Positions 10,547 to 18,938 of a DNA stretch of 36,214 nt are shown here, piece by piece. Under the pieces are notes generated by a model. That model made no database searches. It saw only the letters and a list, made by a program, of their open reading frames with translations, and was not told the origin of the DNA. The number at the start of each line of letters is the position of its first letter. Within the stretch, counting starts at the first letter, position 1. The translations under genes were made by a program, and so were the position numbers. Source of the DNA: a virus (taxonomy: Duplodnaviria > Heunggongvirae > Uroviricota > Caudoviricetes); IMG/VR virus record IMGVR_UViG_2541047804_000005. The stretch is one strand, 5' to 3'.

Positions 10547-12055
10547 TTATTCTTCGGACTGGTCGTCGGTGTGCTGCGGCTCCTGTCGTTTCGTTGCGGC
10601 ACTGCTGCCTCCTTTATCACTGGCCGGATCGGTATCAAATACCAGATCCAGCTTGCGGTTTTCATCAATTTCGGCCTTGCGCCGACGTTTGACATCATCC
10701 GGATTACGACCACCTGCACGTACCCAGTCTGATTCTGTCGCCGCTCCACCACGAATCTGAATTTTCCAGGCCTCAGCCTCCTTAACAGGGTCAATCCACG
10801 GCATCACCGGTCCGGAATACACCGCGGTATACAGTGAAGAACGATCAAGATCGCGGGGTAGCCTGATAACACCGGATGCCACAGCCTGTTTCAGCCAGGC
10901 ACGATACATCGGGCGGGTGACGGCACCAATAAACCAGTCCTGCAGGATCAGGTAGCCATCAGTGGATTCAACCAGCTCCTGACGCTGGGCGCTGTAAGTG
11001 CCGTTATAGTTGCGTGCCGTACTGGAAAAACTCAGACGACTGCCCGCCGCCACGGCACGCAACTGACCATTACGAAAAGTTTCAAGGTTAGGATTGGGAC
11101 GATCCGACTTCACCATTCCGATTTCTTCGCCGGGTTTCAGATCGTCGTAAATAATGCCTGGCTGAATGGTAAGCTCGCGTTCATTCTCCTTGCTGCCATT
11201 ACCATCCGGTTCATAGCTCTGCCCGTCGCCTTTCCGGATGTACATCCCCAGAGCAGCGGCGATCCTTGCTGCAGTCAGCTCAGAATCTTCATACTCTTTC
11301 AGGGCACTGAGGCGGATCAGCACACCGGACAACAAAGACGTCCCGCGCATCTGGTGCAGACGGCGAACAAATTTAAGATGCAGCATTCGCTCTGCATCCA
11401 CTTCTTTGGTTTCCATCTGCCGCCCGGATACGGGACGGCTTTTATACACCAGATATTTTTCGGGACGCCCCCAGTCATCAACAAACACGCCCTGATTCAG
11501 CCTGTTGCTCTCATCACTGGTCATGGGAATAAAGTCCGGCTCGAGCGCCTCCAGCCAGAAATGAACACCGGCAGAAGGCGTCAGGCTGTTTATGCGCCCG
11601 GAAACCATCTGGGCAAACACCTCACCATCGCGCAGCCAGGTACGCAGCATCAGACGTTCCAGCATCGGACGGGTAAACTGCCCGGTGACTTCCGGACTGA
11701 CAGACCATTCACTCCATCGGGTGCGTATCTCCGCTGCCAGATCACGGGCAATGGCCCCATTGCGTAATACCGGATGTGGCTCGACAATAATCCCGTTTTT
11801 CCCCACCACCCGTTCTTCCAGCTTGTCAAATACACCAATAACCAGATCGTGGTTGTTATCAAGGTAACGGGCCTGCTCACGTAACGACACGGCCCCGTAC
11901 TGGCTTAACTGGTCGGCAGTTCGGTTTTCCCGCCGGGCTTTGTGTGTCCGTGTCGTTTTTACGGCCTCATAAGCCTGGATCACCGCACGGGAACGCAGCC
12001 TTGCCGCTTTCCATCCTGGTGAAAAAACGCCAATCACATCATCAAGAATTGCCAT
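10547..12055 (-). CDS. Portal protein (lambda gpB family)
   Basis: About 500-aa ORF after W and before the protease-capsid gene, with acidic C-terminus. Start set at the ATG overlapping the W stop (TGATG), giving MAILDD... Confidence 0.8.
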   Translation of the reverse strand: MAILDDVIGVFSPGWKAARLRSRAVIQAYEAVKTTRTHKARRENRTADQLSQYGAVSLREQARYLDNNHDLVIGVFDKLEERVVGKNGIIVEPHPVLRNGAIARDLAAEIRTRWSEWSVSPEVTGQFTRPMLERLMLRTWLRDGEVFAQMVSGRINSLTPSAGVHFWLEALEPDFIPMTSDESNRLNQGVFVDDWGRPEKYLVYKSRPVSGRQMETKEVDAERMLHLKFVRRLHQMRGTSLLSGVLIRLSALKEYEDSELTAARIAAALGMYIRKGDGQSYEPDGNGSKENERELTIQPGIIYDDLKPGEEIGMVKSDRPNPNLETFRNGQLRAVAAGSRLSFSSTARNYNGTYSAQRQELVESTDGYLILQDWFIGAVTRPMYRAWLKQAVASGVIRLPRDLDRSSLYTAVYSGPVMPWIDPVKEAEAWKIQIRGGAATESDWVRAGGRNPDDVKRRRKAEIDENRKLDLVFDTDPASDKGGSSAATKRQEPQHTDDQSEE

Positions 12056-12273
12056 CAGAACCTCGCCAGCCGGTACCCGGGATGCCCCCGTCGTCGTGTA
12101 ATCAGAGCCGCAAGGCGGCGCTCCCACTCCTGCCGTCCCTGCCGGATCTCAGATAAGTTTTCCATGGTCATCTGCTGACCATTAAAGGTGACGGATTTTC
12201 CGTCCAGCACCGCCATTTCAGCTTCCGTATAACGCTGAATCATGGCTTCGATATCATTCTGGTTCATAACCAT
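12055..12273 (-). CDS. Head-tail joining protein, lambda gpW-like
   Basis: 72-aa ORF between terminase and portal; C-terminal ITRRRGHPGY resembles the lambda W C-terminus (TQRRRGPAGF) as remembered. Confidence 0.65.
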   Translation of the reverse strand: MVMNQNDIEAMIQRYTEAEMAVLDGKSVTFNGQQMTMENLSEIRQGRQEWERRLAALITRRRGHPGYRLARF

Positions 12274-14366
12274 CCTCCGGAAGTCAGCCAGGGGTTAACA
12301 TCGTCAGTTACTGTTTTCTTCCGTTTTTGTTTTTTAACAGGCGTGGATACCGGTTCCGGTGTGGGTGACGGTTCGGTACTGTCCGGGACACACTCCAGCC
12401 AGGTTTCCCGGCTCGCCCACTCCGGTGCATCCGGCCAGCGGATCTTTTCGTATCCATGCAGAATGACCAGAGCCTCGGCATACACCATCAGGTCAAAAGC
12501 TTCGTTGGCACCGCGACCCGGCTTACTCCATTTCCCGTCACTGCTCCGCTCTTCATACGTCAGTTCGTCGTAAAACCAGCTCCCCAGCCAGTCAGGGAAA
12601 TGCACATAGCCGGGACCTGGCGAGTCACGCCATAACGCGTTATTCACCCGGTCTTTCAGGGCATCCGTCTGAAGAAGCCAGAGCGGCACATCACCTGCGG
12701 CCTGCGCCCGGCGGCCCGTTCGTCCGGTGTTATCAGGGAATGTACGGCTGATCAGTTTTGCGCGCCGGATGCTGTCACCCTTAAACAGGTAAATACGTTT
12801 ACCAAGGCCATCACGACGGCAACGACGCCAGAATTTATAGGCATTATCAGTGACCCCGTCTTCACCGCCGGAGTCCACCGCCATTGCCATCAGTCGCATT
12901 TGTTGAGAAGGATCGGAGGCCAGCGGCCAGCTTTTATGAAAAACATCCGTCAGCAGGACATCCCAGTCTTCCGGATAGCTGGCCGGATCAATTCGCTGGC
13001 TCTCCCCGTCGCTGTCACCGCGCAATGACTGCGTGATGTTGTAACGATCAATAATCCAGCGTTCGCCACGGCTGCCATAGCCCGTTACCTGAACCACAAA
13101 ACGGCGATGACGTCCCGCCTGCACATCCACTGTCGCCACAAGGAAATTAACGCCATCCGGCACACTGCGGGAAGGAACTGGCTCTGCCCGCTGCTCAAGC
13201 AATTCACTTTTTCGTTGCTCCATGCTGGCGCGGGGAAGATAAGGTAATCCCCAGTCGGTATTGATAACCGTCTTGAGTGTCTCTTCACTTCCGGTTGTCT
13301 CGTATTCCTGTTCTGCAGTAAGCAGTTTGTAAACGAGTTGCGAGAGTGTCTGATAAGCAGCTGCCGGACCCTCCATCCAGAATGACGCAATACGTGAACG
13401 CCGGGGATCACCATAACGACTGCCATCTGCATTGATGGATTCACCATCCCGTAACCAGACCCCACGTCCGTTCAGCTCGCGTTTTTGTTCAGGCAAAATC
13501 CGTCCTGAACAGGAAGGACACTGAATATAAGCCGCCTCACTTGCCAGCACAGGATCGGCAATATCACGGAAACCAGCAACCACATCGCCGCAGGGCTGAA
13601 AATACTCACCACAGTGTGGACAGGGCCAGTACCAGCGACGGCGATCGCCACGGTTATAGAGCGACAGGATCCCCGTGGTTGGTGGAGCCTCATGCGGTGA
13701 AGTCCGTCGCCATTTCACATCCTTCACATCCCTGCCGGGGGAACTCTCCACCAGCGTCATACCACTGGACATAAATGTGGTGGTACGTTTTGAGGCAAGA
13801 GAGAAGGCATCCCCCTCACCATCAATATCTTCCGGAAAACGGTCATAATCCGTCAGCGCCACGCATTTATAATCTGATGAAGACATGATATTGACTGACG
13901 GCCAGCCGATTTTCAGGTAGTTGCCAGCAAGGAATGTTCTGTCATAAACGTTGTTGTCATTTTTGTTCGGACTCAGGCGACTGACCACTTCCGGGCTGAC
14001 GCGAAACGTTCTGGCGAGTCGTTTTTTGGAGTGTTCGCGGGCTTTTTCCTCCGTCATCTGAATGATCAGCATATCAGCAGGATCGCAAATCACGTTGTAA
14101 ATCACCCAGCCGTCAATCAGGCCGATAGTCTTGCCGGTTCGTGCCGGGCCAACAAATATCACTGCGTCGTATTCACGCGAGGCCAGGCAGTTCATAGGCT
14201 CAATAACATACGGTGCCACCAGCGGATCCCACGGGACTGAGTTCCCTGCCCCCATAGGCACCCGCATATACTGAGCAACGGCATCAGCAACCCGCATTCG
14301 TCTCGGTGCGCGAAGGATATAACCTGAATCGGTTCGTGCTGCCTTTGCGGTTTCCTGATTCAGCAT
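12264..14366 (-). CDS. Terminase large subunit (GpA family)
   Basis: 700-aa ORF with Walker A motif GPARTGKT near the N-terminus and a zinc-ribbon-like CPHCGEY motif, following the small terminase gene. Confidence 0.9.
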   Translation of the reverse strand: MLNQETAKAARTDSGYILRAPRRMRVADAVAQYMRVPMGAGNSVPWDPLVAPYVIEPMNCLASREYDAVIFVGPARTGKTIGLIDGWVIYNVICDPADMLIIQMTEEKAREHSKKRLARTFRVSPEVVSRLSPNKNDNNVYDRTFLAGNYLKIGWPSVNIMSSSDYKCVALTDYDRFPEDIDGEGDAFSLASKRTTTFMSSGMTLVESSPGRDVKDVKWRRTSPHEAPPTTGILSLYNRGDRRRWYWPCPHCGEYFQPCGDVVAGFRDIADPVLASEAAYIQCPSCSGRILPEQKRELNGRGVWLRDGESINADGSRYGDPRRSRIASFWMEGPAAAYQTLSQLVYKLLTAEQEYETTGSEETLKTVINTDWGLPYLPRASMEQRKSELLEQRAEPVPSRSVPDGVNFLVATVDVQAGRHRRFVVQVTGYGSRGERWIIDRYNITQSLRGDSDGESQRIDPASYPEDWDVLLTDVFHKSWPLASDPSQQMRLMAMAVDSGGEDGVTDNAYKFWRRCRRDGLGKRIYLFKGDSIRRAKLISRTFPDNTGRTGRRAQAAGDVPLWLLQTDALKDRVNNALWRDSPGPGYVHFPDWLGSWFYDELTYEERSSDGKWSKPGRGANEAFDLMVYAEALVILHGYEKIRWPDAPEWASRETWLECVPDSTEPSPTPEPVSTPVKKQKRKKTVTDDVNPWLTSGGWL

Positions 14367-14860
14367 TACTCCTCCTGCTGTAATTCCTCCTCATCATCCG
14401 CACCTGCTTCAGTCACCCGCAGGGCTATCTGATCGCGCAGATCATCAATAATGGACTGAACACGGCTCACAGCGGCAGGCTGCAGACCGCAGTCACGTTC
14501 AAGAATATCCGGTAATGTCTCCAGCACCTGCACGACCGCTTTTGCCCAGATGGCAAACTCCCGTCTGACATCACTGGCCGGAATGAGTTGTGCCGTTTCC
14601 TGTTCGAACTTAAGACGCTCACGTTCAGACTGATACCAGGCTTTGCGCTCATGCGCGTCCATTTCGCCTTCTGCAACCGGCGGTGGTAATGCCAGAAATG
14701 CCGACACAATATCAACCACCCGATAAAGCTTGAGGTTGCTTTCATGCCCCCCTGCAACGGGTAGATTTTGCAGCCTTGCCGCAGCAGTCTGGCGATGTAC
14801 ACCTGACAATGCCGCCAGTTGACTGATATTCAGCGTCAGATTTTTTAACTCTCGATCCAT
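14366..14860 (-). CDS. Terminase small subunit (lambda Nu1-like)
   Basis: 164-aa ORF with N-terminal HTH (LNISQLAALSGVHRQTAAARL), acidic C-terminus, GGAG ribosome binding site, immediately downstream of the cos-like region and upstream of the large terminase. Confidence 0.75.
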   Translation of the reverse strand: MDRELKNLTLNISQLAALSGVHRQTAAARLQNLPVAGGHESNLKLYRVVDIVSAFLALPPPVAEGEMDAHERKAWYQSERERLKFEQETAQLIPASDVRREFAIWAKAVVQVLETLPDILERDCGLQPAAVSRVQSIIDDLRDQIALRVTEAGADDEEELQQEE

Positions 14861-15030
14861 ACCCGCTCCAGAATGTTTTAAACATGCATCTTGCGAACAA
14901 CTTTAGGCAAACGGTGTTAGTGATGAACAAAAAACAATCAGAATCGACACCATAAAAATAAATCCACTGTAATATCAATCAATTACAGTAGTGGTGATGA
15001 CGAATAAAATTTCAAAAACTAGCCTTTTTC

Positions 15031-15050
15031 CGCGACGCTCCCGCCCCGTG
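15031..15050 (-). other. Candidate cos site (cosN cohesive-end region)
   Basis: Reverse complement reads CACG GGGCGGGAGCGT CGCGG, matching the lambda cohesive end GGGCGGCGACCT CGCGGG at 9 of 12 positions, about 175 bp upstream of the small terminase start as in lambda. Confidence 0.55.
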
Positions 15051-15234
15051 GCAGGGGCCCCCACCGGGAGGACCCGACAGCCTGACAGCCTGACAGCCGT
15101 GACGAGCATCTGATACAGCGCTTTACATAATGGCATAGGAATAATTCAGAAGGACATCACAGCATGCCCACACAAATTAGTGTGAGTGTCCTGTTTCTTC
15201 CTACGCACAGGACTGACGAGCATGAGGGGAAAAT

Positions 15235-15402
15235 ATGCGAACCATAAATGCCTCATCTTCAGCAATGCAGCCGGCATCCGAACAGGACGATATTGTAAAT
15301 TCACCTAATTACGAGGACATTGCAGTAGTTGAATTGCAGCTCTGTATTAGCCTGACAGTGACAGAATGCGATATTGACTCTGTCACAGGTGAAATAGTTT
15401 GA
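15235..15402 (+). CDS. Small hypothetical protein (55 aa)
   Basis: ATG at 15235 preceded by GAGGGGA at suitable spacing; ORF MRTINASSSAMQPASEQDD...GEIV ends at TGA 15400-15402. No family recognised. Confidence 0.3.
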   Translation: MRTINASSSAMQPASEQDDIVNSPNYEDIAVVELQLCISLTVTECDIDSVTGEIV

Positions 15403-15422
15403 ATGATTAGCAGTTATGGTGC

Positions 15423-15629
15423 TCAGTCAACCACCAGGGAATAATCCTTCGAATTCTTATCGTGCTTCACCAACGCTGCCTCAATTGCCCTGAATGCTTC
15501 CAGAGACACCTGATGTTCTATACATGCAATTACAACATCCGGGTAACTCATAGAAATGGTGCTATTAAGCATATTTTTTACACGAATCAGATCCAACGAG
15601 AGTTCATCAGCAGATTGTTCTTTATTCAT
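15423..15629 (-). CDS. Hypothetical protein (68 aa)
   Basis: ORF with GGAG about 8 nt upstream of the ATG; no family recognised. Confidence 0.3.
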
Positions 15630-15929
15630 TTTGTCGCTCCATGCGTTTGCTCGTCATCTAGCGGTTAAAATATTACTTCAAATCTTACTGCATAAAAGAG
15701 GAAAAGTATGAAAGTTTGAGTACATCGACCTTACATACATCTGTCGGTTGCATATCCCTCCTGGATGCCAGCAAGGCTCAATTTTGTTACGCAATCAACA
15801 CTATTCATTAAAAACAGGCTTAATATTTGACATAAATCATCAACAAAACACAAAGAGGTCAGACCAGATTAAAACAATAAACACGATAATGCAAACTACG
15901 CGCCATCGTATCACATGGAAGGTTTACCA

Positions 15930-16340
15930 ATGGCTCAGGCTGCCATTTTTAAAGAAATATTCGATCAAGTGCGTAAAGATTTAAACTGTGAATTATTTTA
16001 TTCTGAGCTAAAACGTCACAATATCTCACTTTATATTTACTATTTAGCCACAGATAATATTCACATTGTGTTAGAAAACGACAACATAGTGTTAGTAAAA
16101 GGACTCAAAAAGGTTGTAAATGTTAAATTCTCCAGAAACAAACATCTTATAGAGACCTCCTATAATAAGTTGAAATCAAAAGAAATCACATTTCAACAAT
16201 ACAGGGAAAATCTTGCTAAAGCAGGAGTTTTCCGATGGGTTACAAATATCCAGGAACACCAAAGATATTACTATGCCTTTGATAACTCATTACTATTTAC
16301 TGAAAGCATCCAGAAAACTACACAGATCTTACCACGCTAA
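15930..16340 (+). CDS. DUF1398-family protein (YdfO/YbcV-like)
   Basis: 136 aa from the second ATG (GGAAGG ribosome binding site upstream); position next to gnsB and cspI matches Qin-type cargo. Family assignment from memory only. Confidence 0.45.
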
Positions 16341-16491
16341 ACCATAACGTCCGGCTTCTCTCACTCCTGAGCCGGACTGCATTGGTTTAATAAAAACCAT
16401 CAACAATTGTGATTTAGATATTCGGAACCATTCAAATATAACAAAACCCCGTAAAAACGAGGTTTATGGATAAATTTTATTATTGAATACA

Positions 16492-16668
16492 TCAGATTAA
16501 ATTAATCTTGACATCATAGCTTTCAAGACCCGTCATTTTTTCCCGTGCGGTAAACTGAATACTGGTAACTTCTTTCCCGGTCTTTTTCTTAAGTTCAATA
16601 ATTTTTTTTGTTATATATTCAGAAATATCTGCTTCTGCTTTTGTTTTTAAGTTTTCAATATTCATCAT
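16492..16668 (-). CDS. gnsB: GnsB-like small protein
   Basis: 58-aa ORF missed by the ORF track (below its length cutoff): MMNIENLKTKAEADISEYITKKIIELKKKTGKEVTSIQFTAREKMTGLESYDVKINLI, with AAGAGGAA ribosome binding site; matches GnsA/GnsB as remembered. Confidence 0.6.
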   Translation of the reverse strand: MMNIENLKTKAEADISEYITKKIIELKKKTGKEVTSIQFTAREKMTGLESYDVKINLI

Positions 16669-16836
16669 TTCCTCTTTTAGTCTGTTATGACTTTCCAGTT
16701 ACACAGTAAGTCGATTATATGGTGCAAACGTGTAAAAGATAAGATGAAACATCGCAATAATCAACATACGATAGTCTAAATTTTACACAAACAGACAAAG
16801 AGAATTTTCCTGAATTATCAATACAATAGCATCAAA

Positions 16837-17067
16837 TCAACTCAAGAGCCTTATTGCTGCTTCCAGAATTTCTTCTGAAGTAACATGTCGATCCGCGGCT
16901 ACATAAATGACTTTATGATCTCCGGTCAGAGATGGAAACCCTGCGGCCATTACAGTAAGGTGTGTTTTTTCGCCATTTGGATATTCACGCATGATGGTGT
17001 TAACTCCAGTCATCGCTGGCACTACCACTGCTGGTTCAGAGTTAAAAAAAACTATGATTTTTTTCAT
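16837..17067 (-). CDS. Hypothetical protein (76 aa)
   Basis: ORF from internal ATG at 17065-17067 (MKKIIVFFNSEP...); no family recognised. Confidence 0.3.
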   Translation of the reverse strand: MKKIIVFFNSEPAVVVPAMTGVNTIMREYPNGEKTHLTVMAAGFPSLTGDHKVIYVAADRHVTSEEILEAAIRLLS

Positions 17068-17338
17068 GATGTTACCGTAGTATGTGAGTATCCATCGAAT
17101 AGATACCAAGCAAAAAAGCTCCCGAAGGAGCCTTCATTTTCACTTTTTTAAATCCAACGACAGACGGCTGGCATTTAAGTATTGTGAAATATTATCAAAT
17201 GTAATCATCATTGATTTACAAAAGATACATTTTGCCCCGAAAGGATTCATGTCAGAAACATCAAAAGATGATGTTCTATACTGGGAACCATGACAACACG
17301 GGCATCTAAAGTGAATATGGTTTGTAATATTGTCTACC

Positions 17339-17551
17339 TCAAAGCGCCACTACATGAACAGCGGCAGGACCTTTAGGTCCGTTCTCAATACCAAATTCAA
17401 CTTCCTGATTCTCAGTTAATGTTTTGAAATCGTTGCTCTGAATTGCTGAGAAATGGACAAACACATCTTTGCTGCCATCTTTCGGCGTGATGAAACCAAA
17501 ACCTTTTTCAGGGTTAAACCATTTCACTAAACCAGTCATTTTGTTAGACAT
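17339..17551 (-). CDS. cspI: Cold shock protein, CspA family (CspI-like)
   Basis: 70-aa ORF with the cold-shock domain signature KWFN.EKGFGFI and VFVHFSAI (RNP1/RNP2 motifs); a long AT-rich upstream leader region follows on the minus strand. Confidence 0.8.
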
Positions 17552-17914
17552 AATTATTACCTTTTGAAGAAATTAGCCCTTGGGCAGAATGGTCCGAAAA
17601 AAAATATCAGAGAGAAAAACCAACAAGGAAATCTCAAGAGGTACAAATAATAAAATTATAACAATGACTGCTTCAGATAAATTTGTAACAAACCAGAACA
17701 CCATTAACGCATGATTAACCACCCATAGCAAGGATTACTTTTGTAAAGAAAAACACAGCAATGAAAGAATAGCTTTATTTATTAATAATAACGTGTCATT
17801 CTGATTAAGACCTTTTATCTTACCCTTAAGATTTCAGGAATTTTGGCTCATGGAAGAGTCCTTTTTATTTAAATTTTACATTCCGCGATGTAAATGTTCC
17901 GATTTAATATTACC

Positions 17915-18938
<1,024 letters not shown>

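Follow-up and report, generated by a model that had tools for sequence, protein, structure and literature searches.

A predicted lambda-type cos site and an adjoining copy-number-variable repeat in an Escherichia coli lambdoid prophage

Introduction

Among lambda-like phages, the 7-bp cosQ is highly conserved, as are the CG dinucleotides that flank cosN (Feiss et al., PMC4669245). The left half of cosN and these flanking dinucleotides are reported to be under selection, and the half formed by bp 7-12 is naturally variable and tolerates change (PMC4669245). The Salmonella phage Gifsy-1, known here from its published description, has a cosN that differs from that of lambda at positions 8, 9, and 11, and the I2 segment has a role in termination (PMC4669245). 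Tritos corresponds to prophage 3 of E. coli LF82 and yields plaques as well as virions (PMC9928086).

Here we describe the corresponding region of a 36,214-nt stretch of DNA, referred to in its full length as the window, which is an E. coli lambdoid prophage. Two E. coli strains, 118UI and EECO1006, were 100% identical to the window over the 281 bp surrounding the cos site, and of 5426 complete E. coli genomes, 2068 contained related cos-region sequence. Assigning the cos site fixes the ends of the virion genome and thus gives the correct linear map for this prophage type; beyond annotation, the importance of the assignment is small.

Results and Discussion

Based on comparison with lambda and with related phages, positions 14861-15075 of the minus strand very probably form a whole cos site belonging to a lambda-like E. 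coli prophage. With equally high confidence, its parts are arranged in the order cosQ, spacer, cosN, I2-like segment, and cosB, followed by terS and terL. Read on the minus strand, the window showed ...CGGCTGTCAGGCTGTCAGGCTGTC GGGTCCT CCCGGTGGGGGCCCCTGCCACG / GGGCGGGAGCGT / CGCGGAAAAAGGCTAGTTTTTG..., in which slashes mark the predicted nicks, and the lambda junction for comparison is ...CACTTTAC GGGTCCT TTCCGGTGATCCGACAGGTTACG / GGGCGGCGACCT / CGCGGGTTTTCGCTATTTATG... The composite pattern GGGTCCT-N20-25-CGGGGCGG-N6-CG matched the window once and was found in none of 100 shuffled sequences. The ATG of the small terminase gene was located at bp 187, counted from the cohesive end's first base, compared with bp 191 in lambda. 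A preliminary description of this DNA had proposed a lambda-like cos site, and this proposal was borne out by the complete match to cosQ (7/7), the uniqueness of the composite pattern, and the Tritos and cdtI records, which open at this place. Its placement upstream of the gene for the small terminase was likewise correct.

The alignment to lambda cos that had been suggested as a check gave a divided outcome. The cosQ heptamer and cosN positions 1-6 were the same as in lambda, but a generic local alignment of the lambda segment from cosQ to bp 48 against the window reached a score of 20, and the best of 20 mononucleotide shuffles also reached 20. Because the generic alignment was not decisive, the structured motif search and the homologues were used in its place.

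The packaging-termination signal cosQ, GGGTCCT, occupied 15069-15075 (minus strand); it was identical to the lambda heptamer at all seven bases and in the same position. The last 30 bp of lambda start with this heptamer, and lambda cosQ is reported to be bp 48473-48479 (Wieczorek and Feiss, 2001). The distance from cosQ to the nick was 22 bp in the window and 23 bp in lambda. The heptamer was absent from the preliminary description and sits between the palindrome and the repeat that are reported there.

The cohesive end of cosN, 5'-GGGCGGGAGCGT-3' (15035-15046, minus strand), was assigned from homology to lambda and from the ends of deposited records. By homology, nicks are predicted at 15047/15046 on the minus strand and at 15034/15035 on the plus strand, which would leave 12-nt 5' overhangs. 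The reverse complement of 15035-15046, GGGCGGGAGCGT, matched the lambda cohesive end GGGCGGCGACCT at 8 of 12 positions, with mismatches at 7, 8, 9, and 11; the 9 of 12 given in the preliminary description was a miscount. Similarity of the 12-mer was rejected as evidence for a cos site, since a match of 8/12 was equaled or bettered at 18 places elsewhere, compared with 24.2 expected from shuffled sequences. The search behind these counts used the lambda 12-mer with up to three mismatches across the window and did not list 15035-15046 itself. On its own, a likeness of 8/12 to the lambda cohesive end is therefore meaningless.

When the window (GGGCGG, then GAGCGT) was compared with lambda (GGGCGG, then CGACCT), positions 1-6, which make up the left half, were identical, and both nick sites were flanked by CG (...CCACG/GGGCGGGAGCGT/CGCGG...). 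The differences from lambda were confined to bp 7-12 of cosN, and the left half, the flanking CG, and cosQ were unchanged, a pattern that corresponds to the natural cosN variation described in PMC4669245. CCGGTG and ACG/GGGCGG......T/CGCGG are also shared with lambda. Compared with Gifsy-1, the window deviates from lambda at the same three positions and additionally at position 7, where Gifsy-1 retains C and the window has G; the two also differ in host genus. The 12-mer GGGCGGCAGCGT, which is changed at exactly positions 8, 9, and 11 and is one base from that of the window, was found among the viral-contig matches listed, and we infer that it is the Gifsy-1 12-mer. Altogether, the cosQ heptamer, its spacing, and the flanking CG dinucleotides identify the cos site, and the 8/12 match of the cohesive end alone does not.

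Viral contigs were scanned for cosQ-N19-26-CGGGGCGG, which gave at least 120 stretches and 132 listed matches. Among the matches listed, the lambda 12-mer occurred 58 times and GGGCGGGAGCGT occurred 11 times as the second commonest form, and the spacer between cosQ and cosN was 22-24 bp long in 118 of the 132. Because cosQ was the fixed anchor for finding all of the related cos sites, these scans cannot show the conservation of cosQ. One genome per bacterial species was scanned for the cosN variant, and its only real copies were those of E. coli, of E. ruysiae, and of a pair of metagenome-assembled genomes labeled Veillonella and Bacillota. This pair is probably mis-binned, since the sequence in both matches that of these E. 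coli phages. Four matches in high-GC genomes lacked cos-like flanks and appeared to be at chance level. A literature search with GGGCGGGAGCGT and its variants returned unrelated eukaryotic and viral matches only, with no experimental ends for the exact 12-mer.

Deposited phage records were then compared with the predicted nicks. Tritos (OV696610) has the same 12-mer GGGCGGGAGCGT, and its identity to the window was 100% over the stretch that starts with the triple repeat and runs through bp 34. Its record ends with ...GGGTCCTCCCGGTGGGGGCCCCTGCCACG and begins with GGGCGGGAGCGTCGCGG..., so that it was opened exactly at window position 15047/15046. It differs from the window in its cosB, which diverges from bp 34-35, and in its small terminase, which is 42% identical to that of the window. 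The record of cdtI (AB285204) starts with GGGCGGGAGCGT and has the same I2-like segment, but it carries GGGGTGGCC for GGGGGCCCC, has no repeats, and diverges in cosB from bp 34-35. The mEp460_4F5 record was opened 5 nt from the predicted nick. The Tritos paper makes no statement of how the record ends were set (PMC9928086), and since no account of their assignment was found, the ends of the Tritos and cdtI records may be homology-based and are taken as corroboration by other annotators rather than as measurements.

The phages mEp460, Ayreon, phi458, and vB_EcoS-569R4 share the terS/terL genes and cosB of the window (94-99.5% DNA identity) as well as its cosQ and cosN. They carry GGGGTGGCC or GGGGTGGTC in the spacer, and two degenerate repeat units are present in mEp460, Ayreon, and 569R4 and none in phi458. 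According to its genome note, Ayreon was left without a mapped cos site, and terS was chosen by convention as the point at which to open the genome. Some irregularities were observed at cosN in this group. The mEp460 record (JQ182728) has G at cohesive-end position 12 (GGGCGGGAGCGG), Ayreon (MF807953) reads ...CCACGGGG followed by unrelated sequence, and mEp460_4F5 (LR595868) is missing 3 nt (GGGCGGGAGCGCGG). Those of Ayreon and mEp460_4F5 look like assembly artifacts at physical DNA ends.

The genes next to the cos site were examined for packaging functions. The small terminase gene terS (14366-14860, minus strand) encodes a 164-aa protein that matched Pfam DUF1441 (E = 2.7e-41) and PHROG 141, "terminase small subunit" (E = 7e-74), and its homologues are annotated as terminase small subunits in phages 569R4, phi458, and mEp460. 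The 700-aa product of terL (12264-14366, minus strand), a lambda gpA-type large terminase, showed both gpA domains, GpA_ATPase (E = 1.6e-71) and GpA_nuclease (E = 1.1e-85). A lambda-family portal gene follows downstream of the terminase genes (10547-12127, minus strand). The gpA-type terL and the portal, together with CG at both nicks and the A/T tracts after cosN, add to the likeness to lambda. In contrast, the small terminase, of the DUF1441/PHROG 141 type, showed no similarity to lambda Nu1 by BLASTP, and the cosB of the window is unrelated in sequence to that of lambda.

Just to the right of cosN, in the position of lambda I2, an I2-like conserved segment, CGCGGAAAAAGGCTAGTTTTT, occupies bp 13-33 (15014-15034, minus strand). 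It aligns with lambda CGCGGGTTTTCGCTATTTAT, and A/T tracts follow cosN in both. The segment was identical in the window, Tritos, cdtI, and PhiR47_1, although cosB and the small terminase differ among them. Three cosB types were distinguished, all of which were identical from cosN through bp 33-34 and diverged abruptly from bp 34-35; on the other side, the upstream sequences diverged immediately to the left of cosQ. Because identity ends abruptly on both sides, the segment of about 65 bp from cosQ through cosN to I2 looks like a shared recombination joint that would connect different terminase/head modules with different upstream modules. This reading agrees with the description of cosQ, cosN, and I2 as conserved and of cosB as the carrier of packaging specificity (PMC4669245).

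The putative cosB, where the small terminase would bind, extends from I2 to the start codon of terS (14861-15013, minus strand). Loci that carry this terS showed 94-100% conservation of the region. A lambda-style R3/R2/R1 triplet was sought in 14861-15013 and none was recognized; since no set of three R sites was found, cosB is a region that we infer. The IHF consensus WATCAANNNNTTR matched the whole window at two places, one of which (14973-14985, bp 62-74 from cosN) is enclosed by the two arms of an 8-bp inverted repeat (14966-14973 and 14982-14989). Strict conservation of the inverted repeat did not extend to the 569R4 or PhiR47-type loci. A promoter and terminator scan gave matches at background level, and the lone terminator-like match was this inverted repeat.

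The layout of the cos site and its conservation can be read from the sequence; the manner in which it would work is modeled on the lambda paradigm (PMC4669245, PMC9026076). Following induction and rolling-circle replication, cosB would be bound by the small terminase, probably with help from IHF. The bound complex would then position the gpA-type large terminase at cosN, where cutting with a 12-bp stagger, at 15047/15046 on the minus strand and 15034/15035 on the plus strand, is expected to produce 5'-GGGCGGGAGCGT overhangs. Packaging would run toward terS and terL, in the direction of falling window coordinates, as far as the following cos site on the concatemer. At that site, cosQ (15069-15075) together with cosN and I2 would trigger the terminating cut.

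The cos-like sequence could instead be a relic, in which case the prophage would be defective, or the terminase would cut elsewhere or with another stagger and 15035-15046 would not be a real end. The predicted ends of the element rest on homology, many E. coli prophages are cryptic, and with the cos region in so many of the complete E. coli genomes, some copies are necessarily defective. However, the sequence from cosQ through I2 was 100% identical to that of the plaque-forming Tritos, and the DNA of cosB and terS was about 98-99% identical to that of the isolated phages phi458, mEp460, and Ayreon. In addition, terS, terL, and the portal gene were full-length open reading frames with complete domain matches, and no damage was seen in the left half of cosN or in the CG dinucleotides beside the nicks, which are reportedly under selection. 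We therefore consider a relic very improbable and retain the reading of a complete cos site.

The preliminary description had also reported a palindrome, GGGGCCCC, which is indeed present at 15054-15061. It occurs once in the window, with 0.46 occurrences expected and at least one in 39 of 100 shuffled sequences, and it lies within the spacer between cosQ and cosN, CCCGGTGGGGGCCCCTGCCACG (15047-15068, minus strand). In this family, the spacer follows the consensus CCnGGTGGGG...CCTGCCACG, in which the middle bases are variable. The center was GGGGTGGCC in mEp460, cdtI, phi458, and PhiR47_1, GGGGTGGTC in 569R4, GGGGGTCCC in HannyBb and mEp460_ev081, and GGGGGGCCC in other contigs; the GGGGCCCC palindrome, with the center GGGGGCCCC, was specific to the allele of the window and Tritos. 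Because the middle bases of the spacer vary among the relatives, GGGGCCCC is, on this comparative evidence, to be regarded as an allele-specific accident in a G/C-rich spacer rather than as a conserved element.

Upstream of cosQ and directly adjoining it, a noncoding 8-bp tandem repeat was found at 15076-15098 (minus strand), with the unit GACAGCCT on the plus strand and GGCTGTCA on the minus strand and 2.9 exact copies. The three tandem units reported in the preliminary description were real at these coordinates, but in exact terms the array consists of two full GACAGCCT units followed by GACAGCC. Tandem Repeats Finder delimited it as 15076-15103, with a period of 8, 3.4 copies, and 95% matches. 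Copy number was sampled in 120 viral-contig stretches containing AGGCTGTC with cosQ. When exact copies were counted, 77 of these stretches had one copy, 21 had two, 21 had three, and one had four; with one mismatch allowed, the corresponding numbers were 10, 88, 21, and 1. The two-, three-, and four-copy forms share one GGGGGCCCC sequence background. Among the isolated phages, mEp460, HannyBb, 569R4, and PhiR47_1 have two units and Tritos has three. No repeat was found in phi458, cdtI, lambda, or the Stx2 phages, and the sequence upstream of cosQ in phi458, ...ATAATCACTCTCATTTTGGC, is common to cdtI.

The palindrome, the repeats, or both had been proposed to form a cosQ-like or terminase-recognition element that is not shared with lambda. 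Both lie directly beside cosQ and cosN, and the GATAATnATTATC palindrome, found at this position in 45 of 82 distinct lambda-like cos sites among the matches listed, is missing from the repeat lineage, so that the repeat could in principle replace something. This proposal is nevertheless not supported. The real cosQ, identical to that of lambda, is already there as the GGGTCCT that separates the two. The relatives do not conserve the palindrome, which falls within the cosQ-cosN spacer and gives way to the nonpalindromic GGGGTGGCC, GGGGGTCCC, or GGGGGGCCC in the isolated phages mEp460, cdtI, HannyBb, 569R4, and PhiR47_1. The repeat ranges from one to four copies, occurs with three different cosB/small-terminase types, from which it assorts independently, and is missing from phi458, which is 98.3% identical to the window in DNA over terS and cosB. 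Neither the palindrome nor the repeat was conserved among loci with the same terminase while co-varying with terminase type, the pattern sought for an accessory element. An extra recognition element of this phage group is thus very unlikely. It is just as doubtful that the GGCTGTCA array tunes the efficiency of packaging termination or binds a host factor, with its copy number acting as a contingency switch for phage yield.

A small protein-coding gene spanning the cos site, of which the repeat and the spacer would be part, was also considered. A 53-aa open reading frame (14975-15136, minus strand) does span the site, and some relatives have annotated coding sequences there (mEp460_059 and the "putative late gene regulator" of Ayreon). 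The open reading frame had no Pfam or PHROG match, and the coding reading was rejected on this ground. Moreover, changes in copy number of the 8-bp unit would shift its reading frame, virion DNA would have it cut in two, and the conservation tracks the cos subsites rather than codons. A gene at this place is accordingly a most improbable explanation. The GACAGCCT array is best read as a replication-slippage repeat, noncoding and variable in copy number, that would provide no terminase signal. This interpretation is based on the range of one to four copies, the three cosB types, the absence of the repeat from phi458, and the frame-breaking 8-bp unit. The array is also best read as traveling with the upstream, ybcW-side module, and its units lie outside the cos subsites described by Feiss et al. 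(PMC4669245). Since the cos site is built like that of lambda and the palindrome and the 8-base repeat vary among related phages, the cos site of the window is a lambda-type site of an already known kind.

Several features of the flanking DNA were observed as well. The GATAATnATTATC palindrome of other lambda-like cos sites, counted with at most two mismatches, ends 4-8 nt upstream of cosQ at those 45 of the 82 distinct sites among the matches listed, and 101 control 45-mers from 400 nt farther upstream all lacked it. It was absent from window positions 15076-15120, where the 8-bp repeat is found instead, and in other lineages a terminator hairpin occupies its position. Lambda differs from the window in the same way, with the GATAATCATTATC palindrome upstream of its cosQ in place of the 8-bp repeat. 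The lambda copy (J02459, 48447-48465) reads GTAGATGATAATCATTATC, which agrees with the Fur-box consensus of E. coli in 16 of 19 positions. A literature search found no paper naming both cosQ and Fur.

In the noncoding stretch between the cos site and the ybcW homologue, an imperfect 17-nt direct repeat was found (15093-15109, ACAGCCGTGACGAGCAT; 15207-15223, ACAGGACTGACGAGCAT), the copies of which are 82% identical; it may be due to chance. The ybcW homologue (PHROG 657) was located at 15423-15629 on the minus strand and a ybcV homologue (DUF1398) at 15915-16340 on the plus strand. Both lie between the lysis region and the cos site, as they do in Tritos, in which the latter gene is annotated as a homologue of DLP12 prophage ybcV. 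An Rfam scan of 14000-18000 found nothing at the cos site, and its sole match was the cspA thermoregulator at 17312-17697 on the minus strand (112.8 bits, E = 2.8e-29). This match points to the leader of a prophage-borne cold-shock gene; the prophage genes expressed in the Tritos lysogen include those for the cold-shock-like CspI and CspB (PMC9928086).
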